IMG/VR virus record: IMGVR_UViG_3300032323_001295
Span: 1-56,825 of that record
Direction: 5' to 3' (one strand)
From: a virus
Lineage: Duplodnaviria; Caudoviricetes
DNA length: 56,825 nucleotides
Both the position numbers and the translations under genes were made by a program. The notes under the pieces were generated by a model. It did no database searches. It saw only the letters and a program-made list of their open reading frames with translations, and was not told the origin of the DNA. Positions 3,056 to 53,516 of the stretch are shown piece by piece; the first letter of the stretch is position 1; the number at the start of each line of letters is the position of its first letter.

Positions 3056-3058
3056 TAA

Positions 3059-3820: not shown

Positions 3821-3842
3821 CCGTTATTATAAAGGATGCGAG

Positions 3843-4055: not shown

Positions 4056-4624
4056 ACATCACATTAAGAAAAGCAAACGCAGTACAAAATAGCATCAATG
4101 ATGCGATCCGTGGTATTAAGATTAATACATCGGTAGAACTTAACGAATTCCAAGATCCTGCTGTGGAATTGAAGAAAGCTAACGATGCTCTCTTTGCAGC
4201 AGATAGCCGTAGACAGAGACTGTTGTTGGCCTTGTATAATATCCGAGGTCTTGTAGGTACTGCCAACGCTAGCTCTGGCATTGATTTGAATCTAGCAAAG
4301 GCAGCGTTCTTAGATAAAAGAATCTCTCAATTAGAAGAGATCGCTTCTCTCAAAGAACACACTGAGCTACAGGTTATCTCTGGAAAACTAGAGAAGATTA
4401 AAAACCTCAAAGATGAAGCTCGCAGCCGCATCTATGGTTATGGTGATACTGTAAGCACCACAGTGGTTAGCAAAGAGCAAATTGAGCAGGCTAAATCAGA
4501 GATTTTGAATCTGCGTAAACAGAAACAAAAAATCAACGACGAAGTTCTCGAGTTGAACATCAAAACTGAGATTCCACTCAGTGACGACACAGTAGCACTT
4601 CTTCAATCAGAAGGACTGCTGTAA
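4052..4624 (+). CDS. hypothetical coiled-coil protein
   Basis: 190 aa ORF, ATGA overlap with rpoZ. Confidence 0.85.
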   Translation: MNITLRKANAVQNSINDAIRGIKINTSVELNEFQDPAVELKKANDALFAADSRRQRLLLALYNIRGLVGTANASSGIDLNLAKAAFLDKRISQLEEIASLKEHTELQVISGKLEKIKNLKDEARSRIYGYGDTVSTTVVSKEQIEQAKSEILNLRKQKQKINDEVLELNIKTEIPLSDDTVALLQSEGLL

Positions 4625-4626
4625 CA

Positions 4627-4830
4627 GACCCCGGGGTCCCTTCCTCGTTATTAAAGGGGGTAATTGGCTTCACCAGAATGCCAGGGTACAAACGGTAACG
4701 ACCCCAAGGCCCTCTTTAGGGGCGACTTGAGACACCGTGGCGGCAGAAGTAGAACTGACGACAAAGATGCAAATACTAACGGACAGGGTAACCACTCAGT
4801 CTAGGGCGGAACAGGGAACCGTAGCTAGAC
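4627..4830 (+). ncRNA. GC-rich structured intergenic RNA; 5' part has HDV-like pseudoknot topology
   Basis: GGGGTC/GACCCC, CCT-TCCTCG..-AGG, ACGGT/ACCGT, GTCTAG/CTAGAC stems. Confidence 0.45.
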
Positions 4831-4832
4831 AC

Positions 4833-4941
4833 TTTTAAAGAGTAGATTGACAAGATTTTAACACTCCGGCAAGAGTAACATTATCAAGTCGATTTGCCGA
4901 TCGAGGGGCCCTATAATTTCCCTTCAGTCTACTCCTTAAAA
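4833..4941 (+). ncRNA. putative kissing-loop structured RNA (unidentified)
   Basis: 18-bp closing stem 4833-4850/4924-4941 (one mismatch, one G-U); two inner hairpins with complementary loops CGGCAA and TTGCCG. Confidence 0.6.
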
Positions 4942-4947
4942 TTTTGA

Positions 4948-5024
4948 CGCGGTGTATGGAAGTGGTCTATCCGCTTGGTCTCATAAGCCAAGAATCGTTG
5001 GTTCGAATCCAACCTCCGCAACCA
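4948..5024 (+). tRNA. tRNA-Met(CAT), initiator-like
   Basis: C1:A72 mismatch; anticodon loop CTCATAA; ACCA. Confidence 0.88.
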
Positions 5025-5031
5025 AAACAAT

Positions 5032-5104
5032 GCGGGTATTCTCCTGGGAGAGGACTTAGCCTTCCAAGCTAATGAAGCCGGTTCGAATCCGACTACCCGC
5101 TCCA
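5032..5104 (+). tRNA. tRNA-Gly(TCC)
   Basis: Acceptor GCGGGTA/TACCCGC; TTAGC-CTTCCAA-GCTAA; U73-CCA. Confidence 0.92.
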
Positions 5105-13702: not shown

Positions 13703-14506
13703 GTGATTATAGGTATCAATAAACAACCGTATTTTGACATGGAATCATATCTGGATATGAATCAATTTGATCTTTTGCAACCAGAGATCATCCGTGGGTT
13801 TGCAGAAGCTAGAGAGTTCGCCAAAGAAGGAACATGGATGGCTCCGGGTTTTACGTTTAAAGATATGAGTTATCTAGTACATTGGAAACCTATATATCAG
13901 GCAATGCAAGAATTTCATAATTTACCCGACAGCGACCCGATTAAACAAGCAGGTATCGATCTGTATAGAGATTTTAAGAATTATAAAATTCGTAATAAAT
14001 TTACACGATATTTAAAAATGGCAATGGGTGCTTATGATCCTTACATTTATTATTTTCTGTGGGAGGAAGGTTCTTGGGATGATCGAACTGCTCCTCGCAA
14101 GCTCACCGAAGAAGCAGCACACTTTCCAGAAACTGTAAAGTGGGTTGAAAACTTAATCACGGAAGGTATCTTTGAACATATTGGTCGAGTGATATTCTTC
14201 CATTGCGAAGCAGACGGTATTCCTTTTGAGCATCGCGACTTAGATGCTAAGAACGGAATGGACCAAACTTTCCCGCATCGCAATGAGTTTATACACATAC
14301 GTCCTAACACCAAGAAAGCTATGTATCTATGGGATCCAGAAAACAAGAACAAAGTATACCTTAACACTCGAGCTGCTTGGTGGAATGATCAAGACTGGCA
14401 CGGTGGTGAGCGTATTATGGAGCCAAGCTATAGCCTACGTGTTGACGGAAAGTTTACCGAAGAGTTTCGAAAGAAACTAGGTATCGATCACATTGAAAAT
14501 TACTGA
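13703..14506 (+). CDS. 2OG-Fe(II) oxygenase-like (cupin) protein
   Basis: HRD...WHG...R facial-triad pattern. Confidence 0.65.
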   Translation: MIIGINKQPYFDMESYLDMNQFDLLQPEIIRGFAEAREFAKEGTWMAPGFTFKDMSYLVHWKPIYQAMQEFHNLPDSDPIKQAGIDLYRDFKNYKIRNKFTRYLKMAMGAYDPYIYYFLWEEGSWDDRTAPRKLTEEAAHFPETVKWVENLITEGIFEHIGRVIFFHCEADGIPFEHRDLDAKNGMDQTFPHRNEFIHIRPNTKKAMYLWDPENKNKVYLNTRAAWWNDQDWHGGERIMEPSYSLRVDGKFTEEFRKKLGIDHIENY

Positions 14507-16092
14507 TTTTTTAAAACAGAATTTTCCCACTGCGCCGGCGTTAGATTATTAAACACATTTTCCTTTAGCCATTGATGATTATTTTTAGTTGATCGACTAA
14601 TAATGCTGTGACGTTTTTCTGTATCTAAGAAATGTAGCTTTGCTAATTCGTAGGTATCGTCTTTGTTAAGATTGTACCATTTACTAGTGTCTACGCCCAT
14701 GTGTATTGCCCACTGAGCCCACATATACTGTGGAAACATAGTATATCCTTGCAGAGCAGACTGCATGGTATTGTTCACATGCTTGTATTTTTCATAAACT
14801 AAGTCAATGTGATTTTCTTTCTTGCCTAGTTCTCGCATTTCGTTCCACATGTCGCTGTCATTTCTTGAACTTAATGTGTAGTGTACTGAAATAAAATCTG
14901 CAATATCGTCAATAGAATATATCATTATTTCATTGAATTTTTTAAAATCAAAATTTTGTGTTTCTTGATATCCAACGATTACATCATACAATCTTCTAAT
15001 GCTATTAATAATAACAAACAGAGCATTTGCTTCTAGTGGTTCAACGAACCCGCCACTCAATCCTATTGCTACTAGATTGCTGTCGCCAATTTTTTCTAAT
15101 CTGCATGGGTTCCATTTAATCAATCTCGGTTCGCGTCTACGATTTTTAGTATATTCATAGTATTGATCTAATGCTTTGCTGTCATCAAGAAACTTAGAAC
15201 CATAAACTAGCCCGCATCCCATTCTATGGTATACACCAATTTTAAACATCCAGCCCGATTCTTTGGCAGTGCTCTGAGTATAGTTAACCATTTCGGTTTC
15301 CGGATCATCATAATCTAACTGACAAACCCAGGCACGATCGGCAACTGCATTTTTATAAGGCACTTCTTTCCAACCTAGTGCCGATGATAGTAGTCGTTTG
15401 AATCCTGTAGCATCTAAAAATAAATCAGCGATAAATTCCTCGCCGTTATCTGCTACTACAGATTTGATTTTGTCACCGTCTACTTTTACTTCGGTAACCA
15501 CAGCATCAACATGTCGTACACCGTTTGGTACAGCCACACGATCTCTTAGAAAATCTGCTGTTTTATCTGCGTTGATATGCTGTGTCCAACCAAATGGAGC
15601 ATTGAGAATGCACTCCTTGTCTATAAAGGGTGCTACATTTTTTTCCATGTAATAGTATTGACTATTAAAATACTTGTCAAACTTATCAACTTCTTTATTA
15701 TTGTATAAACTAAGAAAATAATCAGTGGTCAGCGAATTACTGCTGTGTGGTAGATCTAGAGGACTTAACGGTTTGTTGATATCCTTGTAAAGAAACTTTG
15801 CATCTGTCGGATAGTTAAAACTGAAATATTCGTATTCGTTTTTATTCTCTTTCCATCCACCGAACTTATTAGCTAATTTGTAGACTGCGCCAGTAGCATT
15901 CATCCATTCGTGGGTATCAAATCCTAGATCTTTAAAAAATTGTGCAACGTGCGGCGTTACTGATTCGCCCACACCGATGCGAGGTATTTTACTAGATTCA
16001 ATTACCGTAATTTTGCAATCTTTTACAAATTTAGAATAGTAAGATGCTGCCATCCAGCCCGCAGTACCGCCCCCAACTATGAGTATCTTCAT
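14500..16092 (-). CDS. flavin-dependent tryptophan-halogenase-family protein
   Basis: GGGTAG; IGVGES; YKLANKF (PrnA K79 equivalent); DATG; FVEPLEA. Confidence 0.9.
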   Translation of the reverse strand: MKILIVGGGTAGWMAASYYSKFVKDCKITVIESSKIPRIGVGESVTPHVAQFFKDLGFDTHEWMNATGAVYKLANKFGGWKENKNEYEYFSFNYPTDAKFLYKDINKPLSPLDLPHSSNSLTTDYFLSLYNNKEVDKFDKYFNSQYYYMEKNVAPFIDKECILNAPFGWTQHINADKTADFLRDRVAVPNGVRHVDAVVTEVKVDGDKIKSVVADNGEEFIADLFLDATGFKRLLSSALGWKEVPYKNAVADRAWVCQLDYDDPETEMVNYTQSTAKESGWMFKIGVYHRMGCGLVYGSKFLDDSKALDQYYEYTKNRRREPRLIKWNPCRLEKIGDSNLVAIGLSGGFVEPLEANALFVIINSIRRLYDVIVGYQETQNFDFKKFNEIMIYSIDDIADFISVHYTLSSRNDSDMWNEMRELGKKENHIDLVYEKYKHVNNTMQSALQGYTMFPQYMWAQWAIHMGVDTSKWYNLNKDDTYELAKLHFLDTEKRHSIISRSTKNNHQWLKENVFNNLTPAQWENSVLKNQ

Positions 16093-16783: not shown

Positions 16784-16833
16784 ATAAAAACTAGTTCATA
16801 AATAGTTTGAAAGATTTTCTTTCAAAATTATCT

Positions 16834-18036
16834 ATGACATCAAAATTAATTTTTCCTTACGCAGTTAACTCTGTACAACAAATAAGAAAGATAGAACGTT
16901 ATACAAAGTTTGGATTCTATTCCCAAGACAAAGAGCTGATAGATTTAAGCCTAGGCAACTGCGGTTGTTTCCCTTTAGGTTTTCAGAGGCACGATATTGT
17001 CGAAACAGTCAATCGACAAATGAAAGATATGCCTTTCTGTAGTGGAGAATTTTTTACCACTAACGATTCCGTTCTAGAACTCAGCGAAAGATTATTTGAA
17101 ATGAGCGGCGGGTTCCGAAGTGTGTTTGCACTCAGCGGCAGTGATGCTGTAGAAGGAGCAATAAGACTTGCTCAACTTTATCATCTACAGAAAGGTAATA
17201 ATAGAAATAAATTTTTAGGCTTTACCAAAAGCTATCACGGCAGTACCTATCTAAGTTCTAGTATCAGCGATGCAACTTATATGACCTCTTTCTTCGGCAA
17301 AGATGAAAGATGCATATTATCGGATTACAATCTCGATGACATTACCACTGATTTAACCGCAGTGGTTATAGAAACCAGCAGTTGGCAAAATGGTTTAAAA
17401 GATCCAGGAGAAGAATTCTGGAGACAATTAAGAATACGGTGTTCCGAATTAGATGTAGTGTTGATTGTAGATGATATTGCTATGTGCGGAGGTAAGACCG
17501 GAAGTTTCTTTGGATTCAAAGAAATAGTTCGACCTGATATATTCACCATGGGCAAAGCATTAACTTCGGGGTATTTTCCTTTGAGTGCTACAATGGTCGA
17601 ACATAAAATATTCGATGTCATCAAAGATCAAGTTTTTTGTCACGGATTCACTTATAGTTTTAGTCTCAGCGGAATATATTCAACCCTTGCATATCTTAAT
17701 GTAATTGAAAGAGAAGGTATCTTTGAAAATTATAAGACTATAGAAAAACAAACTAATGATTTATTTTCAAGATTAGAAACTGCTGAATTGATTAAAAGTT
17801 ACAATCATCACGGACTTGTTTATAACTTAAATTTACTAACAGAAAAACCCGTGGATACAACTTTTGAACAATTACTTTTTAGTTCCGGATTAAATGCAGG
17901 AATGTGGAACGAAGGCGGTAGTGGTTTACTAATAACTATACCTCTTAATGCCGACGCACAATATCTAGAACAACTAGAATCTAGATTAATTGAAGCCTTA
18001 ACTAATTATAGAACGCTTTTCGCCGGCTCTAACTAA
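16834..18036 (+). CDS. class III PLP aminotransferase (BioA/ArgD-like)
   Basis: SGSDAVE; SYHGST; LIVDDIAMCGGKTG; PDIFTMGKALTSGYFPLSA; HGFTY; start ATG 16834 (TTG 16807 alternative). Confidence 0.88.
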   Translation: MTSKLIFPYAVNSVQQIRKIERYTKFGFYSQDKELIDLSLGNCGCFPLGFQRHDIVETVNRQMKDMPFCSGEFFTTNDSVLELSERLFEMSGGFRSVFALSGSDAVEGAIRLAQLYHLQKGNNRNKFLGFTKSYHGSTYLSSSISDATYMTSFFGKDERCILSDYNLDDITTDLTAVVIETSSWQNGLKDPGEEFWRQLRIRCSELDVVLIVDDIAMCGGKTGSFFGFKEIVRPDIFTMGKALTSGYFPLSATMVEHKIFDVIKDQVFCHGFTYSFSLSGIYSTLAYLNVIEREGIFENYKTIEKQTNDLFSRLETAELIKSYNHHGLVYNLNLLTEKPVDTTFEQLLFSSGLNAGMWNEGGSGLLITIPLNADAQYLEQLESRLIEALTNYRTLFAGSN

Positions 18037-31561: not shown

Positions 31562-32150
31562 TCTTGTGTCCTATGAGCATGAATCTTTTATATAAAGGTA
31601 ATTCTAATTCCCCTGCCCACAATACTTTGATATTACATTGATCTTTAAATTCTTCTAAGCTGTCAGCTATCCTAACATGTTCTGGTATATTATAATTGTT
31701 GCTTTGAAGAACTAACAAACTGTTGTGAGAAACTTTGTCTAGCCAATTATTAAATTGTTCTTGTGTGATATGCTCACAGCTAGTGTTAATGATAACATCT
31801 GCACTGCTATCTACTGAACACATGTCGGCAGTGATAGCAGAAAACTTACCAACCATTTCTTCTATCTTATTCATGTTGATAGCGATTGGTTCACACAATG
31901 GATCAATATCTATACTGCGGATTTTTAATATAGGAACATCACTTTGAAATAACATACTGGCTAATACGCCTACCCAACCTCCGTGGATATCTACCGTGAC
32001 AAACTTGTGAATGTGTTTGCGTAGATTTGTAATCAGCCACTCTTTGCTTTTAAGTTGTCCCTGCCAGAAGGCATCCATAGTCCGCATAGGTTCTGGACTT
32101 TGTCTTATGGCCTGCATCCAATGATGTAGATGTTCTGTGTCTATTTGCAT
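31554..32150 (-). CDS. class I SAM-dependent methyltransferase-like protein
   Basis: VDIHGGWVG; SIDIDP; DVIINTSCEH. Confidence 0.65.
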   Translation of the reverse strand: MQIDTEHLHHWMQAIRQSPEPMRTMDAFWQGQLKSKEWLITNLRKHIHKFVTVDIHGGWVGVLASMLFQSDVPILKIRSIDIDPLCEPIAINMNKIEEMVGKFSAITADMCSVDSSADVIINTSCEHITQEQFNNWLDKVSHNSLLVLQSNNYNIPEHVRIADSLEEFKDQCNIKVLWAGELELPLYKRFMLIGHKNV

Positions 32151-33121
32151 TTTGGTATCTTCGAGTCTGCTGAACTAAAACAGCTAGGTGTTGTACATAT
32201 CGTAGGAGATTTAAAAAGTTGAAAACCTTTAGTTAGGGTTCCTAATCTCATGTCGTGGCAACTATAACTTCTTTTAACTTCATCGCTCCGTATAATCACA
32301 CTCTGGAATCCAGAATTACAATGCCAATCTTCAAATTTGTTAAAACCAAAAGCGTTGAATCTTTCTGCTTGATCAAATAGATATTCTTTGCCTTCAGCAT
32401 CATATAGGGCTATTTGATACAGTTCTTCTCCGTTGGCGTGTTGAGGAAATCCTGTCTGCATTTTTTCTATCATATCATCTGTGTAACCTTCTACGATAAA
32501 ACTAGCAGTAGGATCGCTCTGTGGTTTTAGTGTTACATTAATTCCCCGGTCATGCAATCTTTTCATACGTTCATAAAGGTCATAGAACTTTTCCGGAACC
32601 ATAACCTGATTAATAGTTACATAGACTTGCTCATACATCAGTTGTAGGCATTTGTCTCCAAACTCTTGTTCTTTGGCAAACTCATCATGGAAACTGGCTG
32701 TTATGCTCCTACGCTGTAATAGTGAAGTTGCTTCGCACCAACTTTTCCACCACTTGCTACCAGGACTTAAATTCGTTGTCATGTGGACACTTTGGTAGCC
32801 GCTTTCTTTTTCGTCTAGGTGTTTAATCAATTCGATCAAGTCTTTATAGGCCGTAGGCTCACCGCCACTGAAACTCCAATGGAATTCTGTGAATCCATTT
32901 TCGCGAGCCTGTCTTTTGATTTCGTCTACGGTTCTTTTATAAACTTCTAAAGTGTCATAATCTACTTTGTCCGATCTAGCATAAGGCCAGCAGTAGGAAC
33001 ATTTATAATTACAGAAGCGACCAAGTATCCAACTTACAGAAAACAAAGGTCTGTCTAGCATAGTACGTTGTCCAAAGCGTACTATATTTTGAAATGGTAT
33101 TGATTTGAAATCGGTTGTCAT
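32141..33121 (-). CDS. radical SAM enzyme with C-terminal twitch-like domain
   Basis: CNYKCSYC; SGGEPT; TTNLS; CNSG..C..CTTPSC. Confidence 0.88.
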   Translation of the reverse strand: MTTDFKSIPFQNIVRFGQRTMLDRPLFSVSWILGRFCNYKCSYCWPYARSDKVDYDTLEVYKRTVDEIKRQARENGFTEFHWSFSGGEPTAYKDLIELIKHLDEKESGYQSVHMTTNLSPGSKWWKSWCEATSLLQRRSITASFHDEFAKEQEFGDKCLQLMYEQVYVTINQVMVPEKFYDLYERMKRLHDRGINVTLKPQSDPTASFIVEGYTDDMIEKMQTGFPQHANGEELYQIALYDAEGKEYLFDQAERFNAFGFNKFEDWHCNSGFQSVIIRSDEVKRSYSCHDMRLGTLTKGFQLFKSPTICTTPSCFSSADSKIPKCK

Positions 33122-33149
33122 AATGTGCTAATATTTAATCATAAAAATG

Positions 33150-33178
33150 TTGACGTCGGTTAAACTAGGTTATATAAT
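33150..33178 (+). promoter_or_regulatory. sigma70-type promoter driving tRNA-like RNA
   Basis: TTGACG 33150-33155, TATAAT 33173-33178, 17-bp spacer; predicted start site about 33185. Confidence 0.8.
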
Positions 33179-33184
33179 AACAAT

Positions 33185-33296
33185 GTGGTCGTGAGTGGAA
33201 TATGGGAGACCTCCGGTCCGTTGAGAAACGCACTTGGGTTATGGGGCGCCGACTTAGTCACAGCCTTTGTAGGTTCGAATCCTACCGACCACACCA
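33185..33296 (+). ncRNA. tRNA-like RNA (112 nt) lacking a canonical anticodon arm
   Basis: Perfect acceptor GTGGTCG/CGACCAC+ACCA; T arm GTAGG-TTCGAAT-CCTAC; Leu-like D arm; ~55 nt central region with GAGA-capped hairpin. Confidence 0.8.
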
Positions 33297-33340
33297 TTTA
33301 CCTTTATAAGTAAATGACGCATAACTAAAAGGAAAAAATT

Positions 33341-33535
33341 ATGTCAAACACAGTAGAACAATTAAAAGCCGCAATGGATTCATTTCTTGCAGAAGATTCT
33401 AAATTTACCGCAGGCAATGGAGCAGCAGGAACTCGTGCTCGTAAAGCCCTTCAAGAAATGGCCAAGCTAGTCAAAGCCCGTCGTACTGAAATCACAGAGG
33501 AAAAGAACGCTCGTAAAGAAGCTAAGGCTGCTTAA
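33341..33535 (+). CDS. small basic protein, histone H1-like Hc1 N-terminal-domain family
   Basis: GNGAAGTRARKALQEM..RRTEI pattern. Confidence 0.6.
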   Translation: MSNTVEQLKAAMDSFLAEDSKFTAGNGAAGTRARKALQEMAKLVKARRTEITEEKNARKEAKAA

Positions 33536-33537
33536 AA

Positions 33538-34002
33538 ATGGACAGCAAAGATCTACCGTCATTTACGTTAGATGACATAACAATAGATCTAGGGGATTCT
33601 GGTGCTGCCGGGACTTATAATATAACAGGTGCCGGCGGCAACGATACCATTACTTTAGATCCTATTTGGTCAACTATGGGCAGTACAATAACTATACCAT
33701 CAACAACATTATCGACTGGTTCAGGTGGTTCAGGAATTAACTATACAACTTCTTATAATTGGGCACCCTCGCCGGCCACTGTCAACATTACCAGCGATGG
33801 TATTGACATGGCTGCTGGTACTGATATCAAAGTAGATGGTAAGAGTCTCAAAGAGTTCATGTCAAAGATGGAACAGAGATTGTCTATACTAGTTCCAGAT
33901 CCTGCTAAACTAGAAAAATTCGAAGCTCTTAAAAAGGCCTACGAACATTATAAAACTATGGAAAGCCTTTGTTTTGACGAACCCAAGGAAGAAGATAAGT
34001 GA
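33538..34002 (+). CDS. hypothetical protein
   Basis: 154 aa; T/G/S-rich N-half, helical C-terminus. Confidence 0.75.
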   Translation: MDSKDLPSFTLDDITIDLGDSGAAGTYNITGAGGNDTITLDPIWSTMGSTITIPSTTLSTGSGGSGINYTTSYNWAPSPATVNITSDGIDMAAGTDIKVDGKSLKEFMSKMEQRLSILVPDPAKLEKFEALKKAYEHYKTMESLCFDEPKEEDK

Positions 34003-34661
34003 CCACACGATTATACAATATCCTTAACAGAATGATCGACAACGGATTGGTTATTGATACAGTCTATGACATCGGCGCCTGTATCGGTTCTTGGAGTTCT
34101 GACATAAAGAAAAATTGTCTAACCGACTCGACATTTTTTCTGTTCGAACCTAATGAAAAATATATTCCCATACTTTCTCAGTCTGGGTTTTATTTCTTTA
34201 CTTCTCTATTAAGCAGTCCAGGGAAAGGTGTGGTAAAGTTTTATAATGGTACTAATACTGGAGATAGCTATTATAAAGAAACTACTAAATGGTATGACGA
34301 CCAAGAATCTATAGATGTACAATCGCATACACTTGATCAAGTTATCGAAGCTCACAAATTGCCGATTCCTGATTTCATTAAAATAGATACGCAGGGTTCC
34401 GAATTAGATATTCTTTTAGGTGCAGAATCTACTATTGATAAAGTCAGTGTTATACATATCGAATGTCCTATTATCGAATATAACACAGGAGCTCCTAACA
34501 TACAGAATTATTTAGATTATTTCAAATCTAAAAATTTCATTCCTGTAGAAGTGACCGAAATACACATCGGAGAAGATACACTTTTACAAATTGATATTTT
34601 ATTTGTTAGAAGAGATATCAAAGAAAAATACCTACAACCAAATGATTTTATAAGAGTATAA
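33999..34661 (+). CDS. FkbM family methyltransferase
   Basis: YDIGACIG; FEPN; TLD; IKIDTQGSELDIL.G. Confidence 0.88.
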   Translation: MTTRLYNILNRMIDNGLVIDTVYDIGACIGSWSSDIKKNCLTDSTFFLFEPNEKYIPILSQSGFYFFTSLLSSPGKGVVKFYNGTNTGDSYYKETTKWYDDQESIDVQSHTLDQVIEAHKLPIPDFIKIDTQGSELDILLGAESTIDKVSVIHIECPIIEYNTGAPNIQNYLDYFKSKNFIPVEVTEIHIGEDTLLQIDILFVRRDIKEKYLQPNDFIRV

Positions 34662-34664
34662 TTA

Positions 34665-35336
34665 ATGAATGTTAAACTGGTATCCTATTCACAACCAACA
34701 GCAGAATTTGCAGACATGGGCATCGCAGATGCGCAGGAACTCATTGCGTATTGCGCCCGTGTCAGCAATCCATCGAACCAATTCAATACAGAGACATCAG
34801 AGAAGCTTATACGATATCTTGTTAAACACGCACACTGGAGTCCCTTGGAAATGGTTTCAGCCTGTGTTGAAATCTCAACCACTAGAGATATCGCAAGACA
34901 GATACTCAGACATAGAAGTTTTAGTTTCCAAGAGTTCAGTCAACGATATGCTGACCCTACTAAAGACCTCTCGTTCATACTGCGAGAAGCACGACTTCAA
35001 GACCCAAAGAACAGACAGAACAGTGTCGAAACAGATGACGAACGCCTACAGAGAGATTGGGAACATCATCAACAGCAGGTCATCGACTATGCCCGAAGTG
35101 CCTACGAATGGGCTATCGCTAAAGGCATAGCCAAAGAACAGGCTCGTGCAGTTCTTCCAGAAGGCCTGATCGAAAGTAAACTTTATATGAACGGCACACT
35201 GCGTTCATGGGTACACTTTATCGAACTGCGTTCAGCCAATGGTACACAGAAAGAACATCAACTCGTAGCACTAGCCTGCGCCAAAGCGATCGCAGCGATC
35301 TTTCCAATGACCGAAAGTCTTGTAAACAATGGATGA
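34665..35336 (+). CDS. thyX: FAD-dependent thymidylate synthase
   Basis: HWSPLE; RHRSFSFQEFSQRY (RHRx7S); AKEQARAVLP. Confidence 0.96.
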   Translation: MNVKLVSYSQPTAEFADMGIADAQELIAYCARVSNPSNQFNTETSEKLIRYLVKHAHWSPLEMVSACVEISTTRDIARQILRHRSFSFQEFSQRYADPTKDLSFILREARLQDPKNRQNSVETDDERLQRDWEHHQQQVIDYARSAYEWAIAKGIAKEQARAVLPEGLIESKLYMNGTLRSWVHFIELRSANGTQKEHQLVALACAKAIAAIFPMTESLVNNG

Positions 35337-45095: not shown

Positions 45096-45497
45096 ATGGC
45101 ATATTCAGACAAAGTTATTGATCACTACGAGAACCCTCGAAATGTAGGTAGCTTTGACAAGAATGATCTCGACATTGGCACGGGTATGGTAGGAGCACCT
45201 GCCTGTGGCGATGTTATGAAATTGCAGATCAAAGTCAACGAAGAGGGAGTAATCACAGATGCAAGGTTTAAAACTTATGGCTGCGGTTCGGCGATCGCGT
45301 CGAGTTCACTGGCAACAGAATGGCTCAAAGGCAGAAGCTTACAGCAAGCTCAGGAAATCAAAAACTCAGATATCGCTACTGAGTTGGCTCTTCCTCCAGT
45401 TAAAATCCACTGTTCAATCCTTGCAGAAGACGCTATCAAAGCGGCCATAGAAGATTATAAAAATAAAAATGATTTCACTAACACCGCTAGCAGCTGA
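45096..45497 (+). CDS. iscU: Fe-S cluster scaffold IscU
   Basis: MAYSDKVIDHYENPRNVG; GAPACGDVM; KTYGCGSAIASSS; LPPVKIHCSILAEDAI. Confidence 0.97.
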   Translation: MAYSDKVIDHYENPRNVGSFDKNDLDIGTGMVGAPACGDVMKLQIKVNEEGVITDARFKTYGCGSAIASSSLATEWLKGRSLQQAQEIKNSDIATELALPPVKIHCSILAEDAIKAAIEDYKNKNDFTNTASS

Positions 45498-45795
45498 AAA
45501 AGTACAGCAACAACTAGCTCGTAGGGGCAAAGGCGTAGGCATCAGAATCGGTATAAAAACCACAGGATGCTCTGGCATGGCTTATGTATTAGAATATGTA
45601 GATGTTGCTCCCGTAACCAGAGATCAATTCGTCTACGAAACCAATGGTGTAAAGGTATGGATAGATGGACGTAGTAGCCCGTATGTTAACGGCTTAACCA
45701 TGGACTGGCAGCGTAAAGGGCTCAACGAAGGATTTGAGTTTATCAATCCAAACGAAAAAGATCGTTGTGGCTGCGGAGAAAGTTTTAGGGTTTAA
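45469..45795 (+). CDS. iscA: Fe-S assembly A-type carrier IscA
   Basis: TTGCSGMAY; F.NPN..CGCGESF. Confidence 0.95.
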   Translation: MISLTPLAAEKVQQQLARRGKGVGIRIGIKTTGCSGMAYVLEYVDVAPVTRDQFVYETNGVKVWIDGRSSPYVNGLTMDWQRKGLNEGFEFINPNEKDRCGCGESFRV

Positions 45796-46148: not shown

Positions 46149-49100
46149 ATGGCAAGAAAAATTATAGACATTGGTGCGATTGGCAACGATGGTACTGGCG
46201 ATAGTATTCGCGACTCTTTCCGAAAAGTTAACGACAATTTCAGAGAATTATACAGCTCACTAGGGCTTGGAGAGAAATTAACTTTTAGAAATCTAGAAGA
46301 TACTCCAAATTCATATGCAGGTCAGGAAAATGCTATTGTAGCGGTCAATCCTACAGAAACTGGACTGATGTTCAAACAGCTAGTCCCAGGTACAGGTATC
46401 CAATTTGACTTTACTTCAAATTCTAACGAAATTGGTATTTCGACGATTTTCTCGGAAATTTCCGGTGACGCTACACCGCAATTAGGTGGAGACCTTAGTG
46501 CTCGTTCGGGCGGTAGTCAGTGGAGGGTTTTAGATCTTACTACACCTATTTTCCAAGACGAAGCAGCAACCAAGGGCTACGCTGATACAAAAATCGGTCG
46601 TGGCGGTACTAATTCCATAGACCCGAGAACCAATGCTGTAAACCCAGACTTCGGTGTTATGACTGGCCCGTTGATCCTTTCTAGAGATCCGGAACCAGAC
46701 GATGACGAAACATACAACGGATTGATCGCTGCTACAAAACGATATGTTGACAGTTCAGCGTTCGGTAGTGCTGTTAACTTATATGTTGCCACATCGGGTA
46801 AAGATGAAAGACCTGGCGTAAGTGGTGCAGTACAGGGCCGTGCATTAGCCTATGCATATCGAACATTTGAAGCAGCATTAAAACGTGCTGAAGAATTAGT
46901 CAACGAATCAAGAGTTGAGATCGGACCTTATAAGAAAGTTTTAACCTACGGTAACGGAGCTGGTGAATGTTATCTTGCTAACATTGTAGAAGCACCCGGT
47001 GGCGGTGCTGGTTTCGCTGGTACTATTTTTATGAGTGTCAGCGGAGTACAAATTGACAGCGTCGGTAATAACTATAGACCTGGAGATATTTTAACCATTT
47101 CAGGCGGAACATTCACAGAAGCATGTAGAATTGAAATCCTAACTACTACTTCGCTACCAGGCGGTGTTTTAACTTTTAGAGTTATCTCAACTGGTGTGTA
47201 CAGTGTATTGCCAGGAAGTTCAGCTGTTGCTACAACTACAAATAGTGCATTCGGTAATGGCGCAAAATTTGATCTAACATATTCTGTTAACAATATCGTT
47301 ATTGACAGTCCTGGTTCAGGTTATGGATTGGTATCTGTGAGAATTACAGGTGGTGGCGGATCAGGAGCATTTGGATCAGCCGATGTGGTCAACGGATCTA
47401 TCGCAAGTATCACGATTACTGACAAAGGCACTGGATTCACAGCGTTGCCTAGTCTAGTAGTGAACCTTCCAAGATTTAAAATCTTTACCGACGGTGCTAG
47501 AACTGACTTCACTGGCGATGTTACAGATAACAGCGCACAGGCTATTAGAAGTAGAGATATCAGAGAAGGTCTGTATCTAAGAGGCGAAAGAAGTGGCGCA
47601 CTGGCGCAGATCCTTTCTCACTCTGGTCAACTAGATGGCGACGATGAGATTTTTGATGTTGACGTCCAATTCGGCGCATTTGAACTAACTGAACCTATCA
47701 GCTACGGTGATATTACCAAAAATATCCAGATCACGATTTTAGTCGAATCTGGAACCTACGAAGAAAACTTCCCTCTACGTGTTCCGCAGAACGTAGCTAT
47801 CGTCGGTGACGAGTTTAGACGCTGTATCGTTAAACCTAAGAAAGGAATAAGTTCTAGTCCCTGGGCTCTTTTATATTTTAGACGTGACGACGAGGTTGAC
47901 GGAAACGTCCGTGGACCTAATAATTTAAACTTATTAGCGCCGACTGATCGTCCGTTTGGATATCATTATCTACATGATCCTAGTCAACCATGTTATCCGT
48001 TGATTAATAATCCTGGTAATTACAGAGCAGCAGCAGACATATTAACTCTTAATAAGACATTTATTGCTGCCGAAGTTATTGGATTTATCAATGATAGAAA
48101 AATAAAAGGCATCGCACCATTTTCGCAGACTTTTGATTACGATCAAAATATCTGTCAGCGAGATGTAGGCCTATTGATAGATTCTATGGCCTTTGACCTA
48201 CGCTATGGCGGTCAGGATAGGACCATATCAGCTGCGCTAAAATACTACGGTAATGCCAGCGGATTGATCGCGATCACTACACAATTATCACAGACTCTAG
48301 CAGCCATTGATAGAATCAATGTTCTAGCACAAGATATTTTAGCAAATGAACCAATTGATGAAAGTCTACAAGGAACTTACTCGCAGATCATCGATCGTGC
48401 GTTTGTAACAGAAGTAGGTGCTGCTACAGTTTTCGAAGAATTAGTAGACGCAGTCAAAGATGTTATCGACGGCTCTGGTGCTGTAAACTATCCTGAAGAA
48501 AACGATAAGATGGACGCATTCTTGATGAATGATGCTGTTATCGTTAGAGCTGTTACTATACAAGGACACGGAGGATTCTCCATGGTACTTGATCCAACCG
48601 GTCAAGTTCTTGCTAAATCTCCGTATATCCAAGAAGCTGCATCTTTCAGTAGAAGTATCGGTAAGAAGAAATTTACCGGAGGTATGTTTGTTGACGGATT
48701 TGCAGGTAACCTAGAATTTAGAATTTATCAGAAACTTTCAAATACTAGATTGCTAGTAAACAGTCTAAAGAGAGAACCTAAACTTCCTGCATCATTCATT
48801 GTTGATGATCAAGTTTATAGAATCAACTATGTTAGAGATTACATATTCGATCCTGCAGGTTCGACAGCACAGTTCGTTCTAGACGAAACTACACCGTGGC
48901 CGTTTGACGTATTCACTTATAATTCATCAATATGTCGCAGAGACGTTGGATTAATCATTGACGGTCTAGGTTATGATATATTATTCGATACCAACTATCA
49001 TGCTAGAAAAGCTGGACTCTTATACAGAGAAGCCAATGCTGAAGTTGTTATCACTACTCAAAAAATCTTAACAGTTCAATCAATTGCCTATGCTCATGAA

Positions 49101-52100
49101 CTTGCAGGTGGATTAGTTTCATCGTCATCTGCTGCTCTTACAGTAGTCAATAGAAGTAGTAATGCCATTGTTAAAACTATCAATAATGGTATTTCATTTG
49201 CACCATCGGTAGCATTTACCAATCCTCCAGGTGTTGACGCAGATATAGCATCGGCCAAATTACAGATTTTAAATAACCTCTTATACATCAAAGAAGATTG
49301 TATGGGATGGATACTTGCTCAGATCGCAGATGGTAGTGTAACTTTATATCCGCCGAGTTATGTTTACAATTCAAATGCCTACAATAGAAAATTTGAAGCT
49401 ATCTTATTAGCTATTGTTCATGACGAATTGTATGGTGGTAACAAAGAAACTAGAGACATTGGCCTACAGTTTTACAACGGTGTTGGCGATTTAGTACAAT
49501 TCCAATTTAACGACTCTGAAAAAGACGAATTAGCAGCGGCTGTTGGCAGATTAAAAAGTGTAACTCTTTCAGTCTTACAAAATCTCGCTCCTGCAATATC
49601 GTATACCACTATCAGTAGAATTTCAGGTACAGTGGTAGGACTTACAACAAGAACTTCAATCTCTAGCAGATTTGATACGATCATATCTATCATTAACGAT
49701 GTTTCAACAGCTCCGGCGGAGGTATTGCCTAGCCCATCGACTTATGTTTACGATCCTGCAAGAGTAACAGCTAGAACAACATTATTGTCTGGCAAAACTT
49801 CGATACAAGACGATACTATAGATTTTATCACAGAAAATGCCAACAAGTTTGAAGTATTGATGCCCGGCAATAGATCTATGTTAAGCAACGACTTTACACA
49901 GGTCGCTGACATGGGTTATGGATTAGTTACCACCAACGGCGGTTTGACAGAAGCTGTGTCAATGTTTACCTACTACTGTCAGATTTCATACTACTCTATC
50001 AACGGTGGACAGATCCGTTCTATCGGCGGATCCAGTGCTCATGGTGTTTTTGGTTTAGTCGCAGAAGGTGCCGATCCGTTAGAAGTTCCTGTACCAGTTA
50101 CCTTATATCACGATTTCAGCCAAGGAGCCAGCGTATATTCTCCAACTATCGCATTTCCTGCATCTCAAGGAAATCTTTATATCTTCGTAGAATACGACGA
50201 TTATGTTCCTTTGAATAAGGGCGAATTAGAAGTCGACCATAGAGAATTTGCAACATTTACAGGAACCATAACAGGCACTTCGTTAGATGTTACCACAATG
50301 TCAACCGGCTTATTGCAAGTGGGCGATACAGTCTATGGTTCTGGAATTGAACCAGTTAAGATTACTGGCTTTGGTACAGGTTCTGGCGGAGCTGGTACCT
50401 ATACTTTAGCAGCATCTAGAACATTCCCGTCGGGGTCACTATGGGGTAGTGGACTAACTGGTTCTATCGTAAAATACCCAATAACATCAGTGACCACTGT
50501 TGATCTACCAGACGGGGTAGCAAAAATCAATCTCGGAACAGCATCTGCAGCATCCGGAGCGGCTGGAGTTGTAGAAGGTTTGTTTGCTTCATTACCGGAC
50601 AACTATAAAGTTACTATAAGAGCGTTAAGCCAGATAGTTCTAACAGGTGACGTTGTTACAGTAACCACAAGACCAAGTACTGGTCTTGTTTTAGACGAAG
50701 CTCCTCAGGTTTATCGTATTCTAGAATTTGAAAACTACGATGATATCAGGACCTGTACTATCAGCGTTGCCACAGAAACTGTGATCACTACCACTTTGAT
50801 ACACGAACAACAGCCTGGAAATCCTATTCGTTTCCGTGTGTCTGAGGGCGGCACGTTGCCGACAGGAATCATCGCTAACACAGTCTACTATATTTTAACA
50901 TCTGGATTTACTCCAAATTCGTTTAAGATATCTGCTGAGCGAGATGGAACACCAATTAATGTAACTGGCGCTGGCAGTGGAACTTTTAGTTTTAATACCT
51001 ACGGGTTGGCTAGAACTACCTTAAGAGAAAACTACGATTATGTAGATTTTACCACACTAGGTTATCAACCGTTTAGAGGAAGTCAAACAACATTTACCGT
51101 TGGTTTTCCTGCAAACCCAACATTTGTTACTTCAGTTGGTCATGGTCTAACCATAGGAACTGTTATTAGACTCATCACAACAGGCAATCTGCCTGGCGGT
51201 GTATCAGTGTTAAAACACTATTTCGTTCACAATATTCTTGACGCTGACCGATTTGAAATCAGTGCTACTATAGGTATCGGTAGTAATCCGGTAACGTTCA
51301 CTGGTGTGGGCACAGGAGTACATAGTTATGGTAGAGTGCTTGGCGAAGTAGGGGACACATCTTTTGCTGTCCAATCTCTATCTACACTAGATCGTAACAG
51401 AGTTCTTGACAGCATATTTACATGGAAGGGAACTGTACACCAGATCCTAAACTACACTCCTCCTACGAGTTTAACACCATACGGACTTATTGAAATAGAT
51501 CCTCCACTGGCTGATAACGTTACCAAATATACTGCTCAGATTTCCCATAAAGGATCAGTTAGAAAGAATGCAGGCGGTAACTTAACTATCCGTATCGCAT
51601 TAACTCGTGTTACATCTCATGATTTATTAGAAATTGGCACTGGATCTTATGCTGATACAAACTATCCAAATGAAATCTATGGACCTTCTGTAAATCCTGC
51701 CACTGACGCTAACGAAACACAGGAAAGGGGAGTAGGTCGTACATTCTATGTTACCACTGACCAATTCGGTAACTTCCGAGTAGGTCCATACTTCCGTGTT
51801 GACCAAGGTACTGGTAATGTTACATTCTCGGCAGCGATTACGCTGAGTAACTTGGACGGTTTTGGTTTCAAGAGAGGTGTTCCAGTTTCGGAATTCTCTA
51901 CTGACGATTCTATGTCAGACAATGCCACTGATACTGTACCAACTGAACAGGCAGTAAGAACTTACATAGAAAGACGTCTAGGCTTAACACATGCAGGTAA
52001 CATCGTTAGCCCTGGCGCTCTAATTCCTGAAGATGTTGGTGGATTTATGGCTCTTAACGGATTGCTCAGTATGAGAGGCGATTTGTTGATGGGTAACGGT

Positions 52101-53516
52101 ATCCAAAATTATAAGATACAGAATCTAGACAATCCTATAAATCCTACAGATGCTGTTAACCTAAGAAGCTTAACATTTAATAACTTCCAAGAAGTTAGTT
52201 TAAACAATATCAATGCAGGTGATGTATTAACATTTACTGGTGCTGGTAGACAGGCTATCAATGCTGCTATTGTAGGAGACATTGATTATAGTTTCGATTC
52301 TACAGCTAACACCATCACAGCTAATATAAATCCAGGTGTGATCAACAACGTTGAAATTGGCGTTGCGGCTAATATAGCACAGAGCAAATTAAATCTAAAC
52401 TCTGCAACTACCAGAGTCAGTGCTGCTGGAATCACACAAGCTGATCGAGGATTGTCTAGTTTTGACGATGCACAGTTTACCGTAACCAACGGTTGGGTAA
52501 CTATTAAAAATAACGGTATCACTCTTAACAAAGTTCAACAAATTGCATCAAGAACAGTAGTAGGTAATTCAAACATCGCCACAGCTGATGTATCTGCTGT
52601 TAGTTTTGCCACAGTTGTAGATCTAGGCGGTGCGATCAAGAAGAGCCAATATTCATCAACTGGTATATTGAGAAGAAGAGGCTTTGTACCAACTGGAGAT
52701 TCGGACTATGAAGTTTTAGAATCTACAGCACAGAGTGATCCTAGCACACTAGTGTTTAGAGATACACAGAGTAACTTCAGTGCTAACATCATTACTATTA
52801 ACAGTATTAAATCTGGTGCCAACATCGTATTAGATGTTGAAACATCAGCTACTGGTGGTTTCGTCCAGGTACACGGATTTAATGGAACTACTGGTTTGCT
52901 AATCGGTGACGGTACAACACCAGCTGATAGAACCACATACTATGACAACGACAGACATATTTTTAGAAGTCAGAATCGTCTGTCTCTAGCACCGATAACA
53001 GCTTCTCAGATCACTGTTCAAAGTATTACAACTGGCGGTGATACTACCATTGGTACCATCACAGGACAATGGGTATTAGCCAGCTCCCCTGGTGTTACTA
53101 ACAACCGAGGTAATTCAAGAATGCAGGCCACATACTCCGCTGACCTTGCAGAATTCTACGAAGGTGACAAAGAATATGATACTGGCACAGTATTGATATT
53201 TGGTGGAGACAAAGAAGTAACTATTTCAACACAGGCATTTGATCACAGAGTCGCTGGTGTTGTTTCCGACGATGCTGCTTTCTCCATGTATGGCGCATGT
53301 CCAGGATTTAAAAATCAAATAGCACTGCAAGGTCGTGTGCCTTGTAAAGTTGTAGGAAAGGTACAGAAGGGTGATTTGATAGTGACATCAAATGTTCCAG
53401 GGGTAGCGATGTCTGCAAAGAACAATGCTCCGTCAGGAACGATCATTGGTAAATCACTCGAAGACTACGATTCAGATCATATTGGAACTATCGAAGTAGC
53501 GGTAGGGAGAACATAA
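46149..53516 (+). CDS. very large virion structural protein (baseplate/tail-fibre associated, 2455 aa)
   Basis: N-terminal IDIG..GNDGTGDSIRDSF.KVN.NF.ELY (T4 gp9/gp10-like); G-rich beta repeats; C-terminal ADLAE..GRVPCKV..GDLIVTS domain; TAAATA at 46114. Confidence 0.85.
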   Translation: MARKIIDIGAIGNDGTGDSIRDSFRKVNDNFRELYSSLGLGEKLTFRNLEDTPNSYAGQENAIVAVNPTETGLMFKQLVPGTGIQFDFTSNSNEIGISTIFSEISGDATPQLGGDLSARSGGSQWRVLDLTTPIFQDEAATKGYADTKIGRGGTNSIDPRTNAVNPDFGVMTGPLILSRDPEPDDDETYNGLIAATKRYVDSSAFGSAVNLYVATSGKDERPGVSGAVQGRALAYAYRTFEAALKRAEELVNESRVEIGPYKKVLTYGNGAGECYLANIVEAPGGGAGFAGTIFMSVSGVQIDSVGNNYRPGDILTISGGTFTEACRIEILTTTSLPGGVLTFRVISTGVYSVLPGSSAVATTTNSAFGNGAKFDLTYSVNNIVIDSPGSGYGLVSVRITGGGGSGAFGSADVVNGSIASITITDKGTGFTALPSLVVNLPRFKIFTDGARTDFTGDVTDNSAQAIRSRDIREGLYLRGERSGALAQILSHSGQLDGDDEIFDVDVQFGAFELTEPISYGDITKNIQITILVESGTYEENFPLRVPQNVAIVGDEFRRCIVKPKKGISSSPWALLYFRRDDEVDGNVRGPNNLNLLAPTDRPFGYHYLHDPSQPCYPLINNPGNYRAAADILTLNKTFIAAEVIGFINDRKIKGIAPFSQTFDYDQNICQRDVGLLIDSMAFDLRYGGQDRTISAALKYYGNASGLIAITTQLSQTLAAIDRINVLAQDILANEPIDESLQGTYSQIIDRAFVTEVGAATVFEELVDAVKDVIDGSGAVNYPEENDKMDAFLMNDAVIVRAVTIQGHGGFSMVLDPTGQVLAKSPYIQEAASFSRSIGKKKFTGGMFVDGFAGNLEFRIYQKLSNTRLLVNSLKREPKLPASFIVDDQVYRINYVRDYIFDPAGSTAQFVLDETTPWPFDVFTYNSSICRRDVGLIIDGLGYDILFDTNYHARKAGLLYREANAEVVITTQKILTVQSIAYAHELAGGLVSSSSAALTVVNRSSNAIVKTINNGISFAPSVAFTNPPGVDADIASAKLQILNNLLYIKEDCMGWILAQIADGSVTLYPPSYVYNSNAYNRKFEAILLAIVHDELYGGNKETRDIGLQFYNGVGDLVQFQFNDSEKDELAAAVGRLKSVTLSVLQNLAPAISYTTISRISGTVVGLTTRTSISSRFDTIISIINDVSTAPAEVLPSPSTYVYDPARVTARTTLLSGKTSIQDDTIDFITENANKFEVLMPGNRSMLSNDFTQVADMGYGLVTTNGGLTEAVSMFTYYCQISYYSINGGQIRSIGGSSAHGVFGLVAEGADPLEVPVPVTLYHDFSQGASVYSPTIAFPASQGNLYIFVEYDDYVPLNKGELEVDHREFATFTGTITGTSLDVTTMSTGLLQVGDTVYGSGIEPVKITGFGTGSGGAGTYTLAASRTFPSGSLWGSGLTGSIVKYPITSVTTVDLPDGVAKINLGTASAASGAAGVVEGLFASLPDNYKVTIRALSQIVLTGDVVTVTTRPSTGLVLDEAPQVYRILEFENYDDIRTCTISVATETVITTTLIHEQQPGNPIRFRVSEGGTLPTGIIANTVYYILTSGFTPNSFKISAERDGTPINVTGAGSGTFSFNTYGLARTTLRENYDYVDFTTLGYQPFRGSQTTFTVGFPANPTFVTSVGHGLTIGTVIRLITTGNLPGGVSVLKHYFVHNILDADRFEISATIGIGSNPVTFTGVGTGVHSYGRVLGEVGDTSFAVQSLSTLDRNRVLDSIFTWKGTVHQILNYTPPTSLTPYGLIEIDPPLADNVTKYTAQISHKGSVRKNAGGNLTIRIALTRVTSHDLLEIGTGSYADTNYPNEIYGPSVNPATDANETQERGVGRTFYVTTDQFGNFRVGPYFRVDQGTGNVTFSAAITLSNLDGFGFKRGVPVSEFSTDDSMSDNATDTVPTEQAVRTYIERRLGLTHAGNIVSPGALIPEDVGGFMALNGLLSMRGDLLMGNGIQNYKIQNLDNPINPTDAVNLRSLTFNNFQEVSLNNINAGDVLTFTGAGRQAINAAIVGDIDYSFDSTANTITANINPGVINNVEIGVAANIAQSKLNLNSATTRVSAAGITQADRGLSSFDDAQFTVTNGWVTIKNNGITLNKVQQIASRTVVGNSNIATADVSAVSFATVVDLGGAIKKSQYSSTGILRRRGFVPTGDSDYEVLESTAQSDPSTLVFRDTQSNFSANIITINSIKSGANIVLDVETSATGGFVQVHGFNGTTGLLIGDGTTPADRTTYYDNDRHIFRSQNRLSLAPITASQITVQSITTGGDTTIGTITGQWVLASSPGVTNNRGNSRMQATYSADLAEFYEGDKEYDTGTVLIFGGDKEVTISTQAFDHRVAGVVSDDAAFSMYGACPGFKNQIALQGRVPCKVVGKVQKGDLIVTSNVPGVAMSAKNNAPSGTIIGKSLEDYDSDHIGTIEVAVGRT

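Follow-up and report, generated by a model that had tools for sequence, protein, structure and literature searches.

Known non-decoding RNAs with a tRNA shape are the tRNA-like domain of transfer-messenger RNA (tmRNA), viral 3' tRNA-like ends and the Y RNAs. In the tmRNA domain, a tRNA-shaped module of acceptor and T arm is joined to a long helix that takes the place of the anticodon arm; the domain is charged by a synthetase that ignores the anticodon, and it has neither a D stem nor a long variable arm; in the Y RNA YrlA, the 5' and 3' ends form a Ro-binding stem at the position of the anticodon arm. Other dedicated species serve roles outside decoding with a normal anticodon arm still in place, such as the staphylococcal tRNA-Gly for cell-wall synthesis and the tRNA-Other of Bacillus cereus. 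According to passages of PMC7824862, YrlA Y RNAs are non-decoding RNAs with a tRNA-like domain, and some jumbo phages encode their Ro/TROVE partner, while passages of PMC3014915 and PMC12685909 describe rnaC and rnaD (species 1 and 2) of phage T4 as small stable RNAs whose roles are still unexplained. An engineered 'minimalist' tRNA-Leu without an anticodon arm can be leucylated (Larkin et al. 2002, as summarised in PMC9976931). Here we analyze a 56,825-nt stretch of phage DNA (hereafter the window; Duplodnaviria, Caudoviricetes), a 56.8-kb fragment of the single IMG/VR virus record IMGVR_UViG_3300032323_001295 that is estimated to be 16% complete, and which carries one copy of a 112-nt element at 33185-33296 (+). 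As judged from its letters and those of its relatives, the element is a class-II (long variable arm) tRNA-shaped RNA of leucine type in which the anticodon arm is replaced by a capped stem, and we tentatively propose, at slightly less than an even chance, that its RNA can be charged by the host leucyl-tRNA synthetase (LeuRS), is unable to decode, and acts away from the ribosome.

The window copy follows the layout GTGGTCG-TG-AGTGGAATATGGGAGACCT-[H1]-TTAT-[H2]-T-GTAGGTTCGAATCCTAC-CGACCAC-A-CCA, where H1 and H2 are two central hairpins. Nucleotides 1-7 (GTGGTCG, 33185-33191) pair perfectly with CGACCAC (33286-33292) to form the acceptor stem, which is followed by A73 (33293) and an encoded CCA (33294-33296). 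U8, G9 and the D arm occupy 33192-33212, a region that includes GGAATATGGGAGAC and presents a Leu-type loop, GGAAUAUGGGAGA, holding G18G19. At the anticodon-arm position lies H1 (33213-33238), a stem capped by a GAGA tetraloop (CGTT-GAGA-AACG, extended by GGT/ACT beyond a C.C mismatch) without any 7-nt loop, joined through a UUAU linker (33239-33242) to H2 (33243-33267; GGGGC..GAC-TTA-GTC..GCCTT), a long variable arm of 5 bp, an internal loop, 3 bp and a UUA loop. U48 (33268), the base that would form a Leu-type Levitt pair with A15, then leads into the T arm GUAGG-UUCGAAU-CCUAC (33269-33285), a 5-bp stem with a UUCRANY-type loop, which the Rfam tRNA model aligns. An earlier description of this locus made from the letters alone (the sequence-only reading) had noted the acceptor stem, A73-CCA, T arm and Leu-like D loop as well as the two extended central arms in place of an anticodon loop, all of which we find as described. 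One correction to that description concerns the D stem, which in the window comprises just two Watson-Crick pairs (A10-U and G11-C) plus a U.C mismatch.

Standard annotation tools pass over this element. ARAGORN called 13 ordinary tRNAs in the window, all at 24-5104, and Rfam at gathering thresholds listed 12, with the element in neither set; copies from 5 relatives were likewise not listed at the Rfam gathering threshold. Under permissive settings, the element reached 24.8 bits with the Rfam tRNA model (RF00005), short of the gathering score of 29, and only its acceptor and T arms were aligned, such that the check proposed in the sequence-only reading left the element unrecognized as a tRNA by both programs. 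The exclusion of tmRNA made there was borne out as well: pair 3-70 is G:C rather than G:U in the window, ARAGORN reported no tmRNA at this site, and the Rfam tmRNA_permuted model gave 11.6 bits (E = 2.3). We found no family for the element in Rfam 15, and a literature search on phage tRNA-like RNAs lacking an anticodon or serving anti-defense returned no description of it, although the family may be present, unnamed, among the 8,495 candidate structured RNAs, tRNA-like ones included, that passages of PMC10690425 report from IMG/VR.

We next leveraged metagenomic relatives of the locus. The neighboring radical SAM gene (326 aa) has at least 594 relatives in IMG/VR, from which 80 loci were kept, and blastn of the element matched in 62 of these, yielding 39 distinct sequences of 71-92% identity. 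Because a plain MAFFT alignment with RNAalifold recovered the acceptor and T arms plus a spurious helix while misaligning the central hairpins, we supplied the structure by hand for 37 distinct sequences and realigned them with the resulting covariance model (R1). R1 scores the window copy, whose row belongs to its own alignment, at 113.9 bits (E about 1e-25), and gives only weak matches to the window's tRNA-Arg (31.6 bits) and tRNA-Leu (27.6 bits). Across 83 loci fetched via the radical SAM neighbor, R1 detected one element in 67 and none in the remaining 16. A D-arm pattern additionally matched at least 120 further IMG/VR stretches, and with 19 of these loci (L187-L205) left out of the search, R1 found the element in 100 of 100 (5 of them clipped at locus ends). 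Some loci are two views of one contig, and the whole set reduces to about 100 distinct variants.

The family extends to large, and in one case complete, phage genomes. Records of 345, 322.5, 282, 217 and 199 kb each contain one strong R1 match, with all other R1 matches in these five records at or below 34.4 bits and corresponding to ordinary tRNAs wherever checked; the 322.5-kb record (G002) is 100% complete with terminal repeats. Among GenBank phages, megablast of window positions 32000-35000 gave no match, blastn with three family members matched nothing beyond the generic T arm and the 3' side of the acceptor, covering no more than 28% of the query, and tblastn with the radical SAM neighbor gave just two remote matches at 25.6% identity, with no cultured relative. 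In bacterial and archaeal genomes (596 Gb), the D-arm pattern occurred in 35 stretches, approximately the number expected by chance from a hand estimate, none of which (0/35) was matched by R1. The sequencing runs that contain the stretch are labelled as freshwater or lake metagenomes. Whereas the sequence-only reading had named a lack of conserved homologs as a sign of decay, homologs are abundant and covarying, and comparison across them indicates that the element is a real, selected gene of a clade of 200-345 kb freshwater phages.

Covariation carries much of this argument. In a second alignment of 80 distinct rows, evaluated with five measures against 500 shuffles, 93.7% of cells held standard pairs compared with 76.5% in shuffles, 29 of the 31 modelled pairs showed changes on both sides, and none of the 500 shuffles reached the observed value on any measure. 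Covarying pairs were found in 7/7 positions of the acceptor stem, 4/5 of the T arm, 8/8 of H2 and 7/8 of H1, with 100% of cells paired in the acceptor stem and T arm and at least 98% in H2, while the D-stem pairs A10-U and G11-C hardly vary. Note that pair counts taken on a model-fitted alignment favor the model; the checks on this are a control with slid 3' partners, which paired in at most 46.2% of cells, and constrained folds of individual sequences, which in most of the 37 cases yielded the same pair of central hairpins. Taken together, conservation and covariation indicate that the element is more than a product of chance.

The variants also reveal which parts of the RNA are held and which are free to change. 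H1 ranges from 11 to 34 nt and from 4 to 13 base pairs across 101 variants, with caps that include UUCG (13 variants), GNRA types (29), CUUG, UUUG, CAUA-type and loops of 5-10 nt; all four bases occur at the free second position of the GNRA-type caps, and a 7-nt loop appears in just one of the 101. The linker after the closing Gs of H1 is 2-4 nt of variable letters. H2, on the other hand, is held to 23-27 nt in 101/101 variants and has an NUA loop in nearly all of them (UUA in 49). Outside the helices, U8, U48 and A73 are present in 97/97 variants and CCA in 96/97, and G18G19 occurs in the D loop of 96/97. All 97 D-arm strings contain A15 and A20a, with AA following the stem and an A two bases past the GG position, counts that speak of base presence only and not of tertiary pairing. 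The T loop is UUCGAAU in 70/97, begins with UUC in 96/97 and has A at position 58 in 95/97, and nucleotide 1 is G in 92/97 and A in 5/97. These patterns indicate that the H1 stub is a mere cap, and that selection keeps the acceptor end, the elbow and the variable arm.

The element also appears to have a promoter of its own. At 33150-33178 (+), the best site of the scanned region consists of a -35 hexamer TTGACG (33150-33155) and a -10 hexamer TATAAT (33173-33178) separated by 17 nt, matching the consensus at 11/12 positions and ending 6 nt before G33185, in agreement with the promoter and start near nucleotide 1 given in the sequence-only reading. All 100 of 100 distinct upstream sequences have a TAnnnT hexamer precisely at -12..-7 (TATAAT in 65, TATACT in 28), and 79/100 have a -35-like hexamer at a 16-18 nt spacer. 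Under the usual -10-to-start spacing rule of sigma-70 promoters, this fixed box implies that transcription should start at acceptor nucleotide 1 (predicted at G33185), which would leave no 5' leader and no RNase P step; a role as RNase P substrate was dropped for want of a leader. The same geometry is kept in a different context in the complete genome G002, where the element lies 59 nt past a tRNA-Cys within a tRNA cluster, is followed by a different gene and has no radical SAM gene beside it, and yet retains TTGACG-17-TACACT-6-A1 with both neighbors changed, indicating that the promoter belongs to the element. On the 3' side, no terminator-like site was found on the + strand in 32900-34100, and A+T makes up at least 60% of the 20 nt that follow CCA in 95/96 variants, from which we infer that the RNA would be cut from a longer early transcript.

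The conserved bases point to leucine as the most plausible identity. According to passages of PMC9976931, A73 is crucial in E. coli tRNA-Leu, in contrast to the anticodon and the long variable arm; the A15:U48 pair, G18G19 and A20a are also essential, and the G18:U55, G19-C56 and U54:A58 contacts matter. The same passages report that tRNA-Leu lacking both the anticodon arm and the variable arm stays active, a result also given for arm-less variants of Aquifex tRNA-Leu in PMC2377443. This matches the statement in the sequence-only reading that LeuRS reads A73 and the elbow rather than the anticodon. In our family the corresponding set (A73, A15:U48, G18G19, A20a and U54/U55/C56/A58), which is that of E. 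coli LeuRS, is present and essentially invariant, whereas acceptor pairs 3-70 and 5-68 vary freely among variants, as would be expected if A73 rather than the stem carries the identity.

Determinants of other amino acids are rare or missing. G3:U70, the alanine determinant, occurs in only 3/97 variants. G2:C71, a determinant of tRNA-Ser, is found in 0/97, with pair 2-71 being U-A in 84, C-G in 11 and U.G in 2, and G73, a determinant of E. coli tRNA-Ser according to a passage of PMC9976931, is likewise found in 0/97. When compared with 88 genuine tRNAs of the clade (after removal of 13 ARAGORN calls that were the element itself), the D arm of the element is closest to that of tRNA-Leu (score 11, next best 9). 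R1 similarly finds its best canonical match in phage T4 in tRNA-Leu (39.4 bits, compared with 25.7 for tRNA-Ser and 25.3 for tRNA-Thr), and its best canonical match in G003, another of the large records, is also tRNA-Leu (34.4 bits).

Based on these observations, a possible course of events can be outlined. The RNA would be transcribed from its own strong sigma-70-type promoter, beginning at acceptor nucleotide 1 with a 5' triphosphate and without an RNase P cut, and its 3' end would be trimmed from the A/U-rich trailer to the encoded ACCA. It would then adopt the L shape of a tRNA and be acted on by the tRNA enzymes of the host, whose LeuRS would charge it because this enzyme reads A73 and the D/T-loop elbow instead of the anticodon. 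Once charged, the RNA would act outside decoding. It could carry the aminoacyl group, or it could engage proteins that recognize the acceptor end, elbow or long variable arm of tRNA, as a competitor or pseudo-substrate. A more specific version, possible but doubtful in our view, is that this is a purpose-built anticodon-less tRNA that LeuRS would load, serving either as a private aminoacyl carrier for an off-ribosome reaction of an as yet unrecognized enzyme or as a charged pseudo-substrate by which host proteins working on aminoacyl-tRNA or on tRNA 3' ends, immunity toxins included, would be jammed. LeuRS editing is described in PMC9976931 and PMC2377443 as needing the anticodon arm, so in this version the RNA could even escape LeuRS proofreading and carry a non-cognate amino acid.

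We also searched for phage enzymes that might charge or use such an RNA. Profiles PF00133 (class I aminoacyl-tRNA synthetase), PF03588, PF02388, PF01743, PF16715 and PF04377 were run against five records per search (G001-G005 or G000-G004), and class I synthetases, CCA-adding enzymes, L/F-transferase, FemAB, CDPS and ATE_C were all absent from the records searched. In favor of our reading, the phage's own tRNAs encode CCA as the element does. With no class I synthetase or CCA-adding enzyme in five records, any charging would be by the host enzyme. LanB (PF04738) also gave no match in five records, but its control likewise matched no genome, so that this result carries little weight. Pfam and PHROGs searches on about 45 open reading frames (ORFs) of the window revealed no tRNA-related enzyme, the families found being radical SAM, halogenase, hydroxylase, methyltransferase, ThyX and Hc1.

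The view in the sequence-only reading of a putatively aminoacylatable, non-decoding mimic is thus partly supported: in its general form it fits the conserved LeuRS determinants, the reported chargeability of arm-less tRNA-Leu and the missing decoding loop, while the three specific roles it suggested find no support. A donor for the adjacent modification cluster finds no FemAB, L/F-transferase, CDPS or ATE_C in the searched records, and the G002 element sits within a tRNA cluster away from the radical SAM gene, for which reason a role as substrate of the neighboring radical SAM enzyme was dropped too. A decoy for anticodon nucleases does not agree with an RNA that has no anticodon loop. An effector of T-box or RelA sensing is unsupported and was dropped, as both read the anticodon.

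Turning to the surroundings of the element, an A/T-rich spacer (33297-33340, +) without a terminator holds the ribosome-binding site of the next gene, a co-oriented gene for a histone H1-like protein of the chlamydial Hc1 type (33341-33535, +; PF07432, E = 2.1e-15). Across 138 loci, the first downstream gene is hc1 in 77, an unrelated 127-aa protein in 54 and others in 7. The 127-aa protein (e.g., L047 925-1305, -) has an N-terminal hydrophobic segment and an HETLH motif with no Pfam family, and may be a small secreted metallopeptidase. Upstream and divergent lies the radical SAM gene (32141-33121, -; PF04055), an arrangement seen in 135/152 loci, though we claim no partnership between the two. 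Four sequencing runs were examined as contigs, a form from which starts, ends and expression levels are not readable; the RNA-library run leaves parts of the stretch uncovered, including 33104-33171. One 159-nt metatranscriptome contig from a relative covers positions equivalent to 33195-33312 with no joint inside and then runs on, in letters unlike the window, into the next gene's leader.

Several observations weigh against a leucine-charged RNA. The D stem is weak, with pair 12-23 being a non-standard U.C in 77/79 rows (the third D-stem position is C-G in three variants that have a different D arm, AGCAAAUAGGCAAAGCU), the element lacks nucleotide 26, and its variable arm exceeds the length of the phage's own tRNA-Leu arm, such that a real LeuRS might reject the RNA. 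The determinants we compared are those of E. coli LeuRS and may not be those of the host enzyme, and since the conserved bases are also needed by any L-shaped tRNA, a leucine identity is suggested and not proven by them; within the window, R1 even prefers tRNA-Arg (31.6 bits) over tRNA-Leu (27.6 bits), mainly owing to a near-identical T arm. The enzyme searches described above yielded no partner in the phage records. The minimum-energy fold of the window copy is ordinary (z = -0.06, with 94/200 shuffles as stable), meaning that thermodynamics alone would not prove the element real and that the case rests on comparison. Three syntenic loci (L075, L076 and L078) keep the radical SAM gene, the promoter and hc1 without the element, indicating that it is dispensable or optional in some phages. 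In these three loci the promoter is of the TATAAT type and lies upstream of the radical SAM match, and in L076 a short AAGCATA/TATGCTT hairpin is found where relatives have the element. Finally, the sole RNA-library contig fits an unspliced co-transcript but may reflect DNA carry-over.

The main rival to a charged role, which we consider unlikely, is that of an uncharged decoy or pseudo-substrate, in which an early and abundant RNA would occupy a host protein that reads the acceptor end, elbow or variable arm, with candidate targets including a nuclease, an enzyme of tRNA modification or a defense toxin whose action is to modify or cleave the 3' ends of tRNAs. Such a decoy would account for the strong early-type promoter with its leaderless start and for the invariance of A73 and the CCA end, and the holding of the variable arm at 23-27 nt, though E. 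coli LeuRS reportedly needs none, would point to a second reader. It would also sit well with the lack of any phage-encoded aminoacyl-transferase family among our searches and with the optional presence of the element between close relatives, as is often the case for counter-defense genes. However, we identified no defense system or target, a stoichiometric decoy would be a poor answer to a catalytic toxin, and anticodon-loop nucleases would find no loop to cut, which excludes them as targets. Conservation moreover extends to the full Leu identity set, which a simple end or elbow decoy would not need. A decoy for SmpB was considered and dropped, as both a D stem and a variable arm are present in the RNA. 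Improbable, in our estimate, is a cis-acting module of the early mRNA, in which the 5' tRNA shape would be a processing or stability signal for the hc1 message with no function in trans. In its favor, the element is flanked by the promoter and hc1 without a terminator, hc1 is driven directly from the same promoter position in L075, L076 and L078, and the one contig from a relative, albeit as weak evidence, extends past the element into the leader of hc1. Yet the downstream gene changes (to the 127-aa protein in 54 of the 138 loci, and to a third gene in G002) while element and promoter stay constant; a processing signal would need an acceptor stem and T arm but not A73-CCA, A15:U48, A20a or a length-constrained variable arm; and a start at nucleotide 1 would leave RNase P no 5' leader.

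Two further explanations are both very improbable. One is that a decoding tRNA arises after splicing or rearrangement, or through an unusual loop, a possibility that the sequence-only reading had raised in the form of splicing that restores an anticodon arm. Although ARAGORN forces a tRNA call on 12/97 variants and a GUAC-like loop motif is common to some large-loop variants, the forced anticodons are mutually inconsistent (Pro, Arg, Gln, Ser and 4-base calls), and the caps are tetraloops of the UUCG, GNRA and CUUG types that vary at their free position. In 14/101 variants the H1 region is only 11-16 nt, short of the 17 nt of a normal anticodon arm, so excision cannot yield such an arm and the splicing proposal fails. 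Known bacterial tRNA introns, in addition, are group I introns of more than 200 nt, and the RNA contig, for the little weight it bears, has no joint inside the element. The other is a decaying tRNA pseudogene without function, which would fit an element that tRNA finders do not recognize, that has an ordinary fold energy and that is absent from some relatives. Against this stand compensatory changes at 29/31 pairs over about 100 variants, invariant unpaired identity bases, a promoter at fixed spacing in 100/100 upstream sequences, and a single strong copy in each of the five large records, including one in a different context; as far as comparative data allow, covariation and promoter conservation refute decay.

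Comparing the element with the described systems further delineates what is distinctive about it. With class-II tRNA-Leu it shares the 7-bp acceptor stem, A73-CCA, a GGAAUUGGUAGAC-type D loop, A15:U48, G18G19, the T loop and a long variable arm, and differs in lacking a 7-nt anticodon loop, in its D stem of two Watson-Crick pairs, in a variable arm of 23-27 nt, in its predicted leaderless start and in a sub-gathering Rfam score. The minimalist tRNA-Leu is a laboratory construct, whereas the element is a natural gene. Like the tRNA-like domain of tmRNA, the element joins an acceptor and T-arm module to a helix at the place of the anticodon arm, but it is 112 nt long, has no mRNA-like part or tag, and carries G3:U70 in only the 3/97 variants noted above. 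G002 also encodes a genuine tmRNA (L252 5271-5642, -; about 45271-45642 in G002), which matches Rfam beta_tmRNA (RF01850) at 139.5 bits against a gathering score of 84 and is called by ARAGORN as permuted with the tag AANDDAYLMAA, hinting at a betaproteobacterial host and at a phage interest in ribosome rescue.

The comparison with T4 rnaC (L249 1407-1501, -) is more distant: its 3' two-thirds align as an acceptor-like helix (ACGGAAC/GTTTCGT) and a canonical T arm, but R1 scores it at 20.0 bits, below each of the three T4 tRNAs given above and a score by which homology is not shown, and rnaC differs in having a 5' extension of about 45 nt and in sitting at the end of a tRNA cluster. Relative to the Y RNAs, the ends of the element form an acceptor stem with A73-CCA instead of a Ro-binding stem. 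With the off-ribosome tRNAs it shares the idea of a dedicated species, but its anticodon arm is gone and no matching transferase family was found in the searched records. Seen against these families, the element is, by its sequence and predicted structure, a tRNA-derived non-decoding RNA of unusually clean architecture that fails a defining feature of canonical tRNAs, of tmRNA and of the Y RNAs.

We also observed additional features of the window and its relatives. Positions 5880-33121 form a very large accessory block. It contains at least 9 radical SAM genes (several SPASM, and one carrying an HMPTM zinc ribbon) and further encodes a tryptophan halogenase (14500-16092, -), a class-III aminotransferase (16807-18036) and a pair of Asp/Asn-hydroxylase-like proteins, along with many family-less ORFs; the block looks like a phage-carried peptide or small-molecule modification cluster. 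The 541-aa protein at 5880-7505 has an N-terminal Mtd_N (major tropism determinant) domain, and a 2455-aa ORF at 46149-53516 has no assigned function. Among the ordinary tRNAs of the window, tRNA-Leu(GAG) at 1867-1943 is only 77 nt long with a short type-I-like variable loop, unusual for a bacterial-type tRNA-Leu, and two normal long-arm tRNA-Leu genes are present in the same window. In two other loci, ARAGORN called a 92-nt 'tRNA-Ile (tat)' (L211 1922-2013 and L213 1756-1847), much above the normal length of tRNA-Ile, which may represent an insert or a miscall.

For the biology of these phages, the element brings together features for whose combination we found no report: the full acceptor, elbow and variable-arm identity of one amino acid, the loss of the anticodon loop alone, and a promoter that would spare RNase P. 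Its distribution indicates that tRNA finders and Rfam overlook a widespread class of tRNA-derived genes in phage metagenomes. The roughly 100 natural variants map the constrained parts (variable arm, elbow and A73-CCA) and the free part (the stub), such that biochemical tests are easy to design. If the RNA is charged, it would be the natural counterpart of the laboratory minimalist tRNA-Leu, and would offer a handle on how phage and host interact through the supply of aminoacyl-tRNA, through immunity directed at tRNA ends or through the non-ribosomal use of aminoacyl-tRNA.

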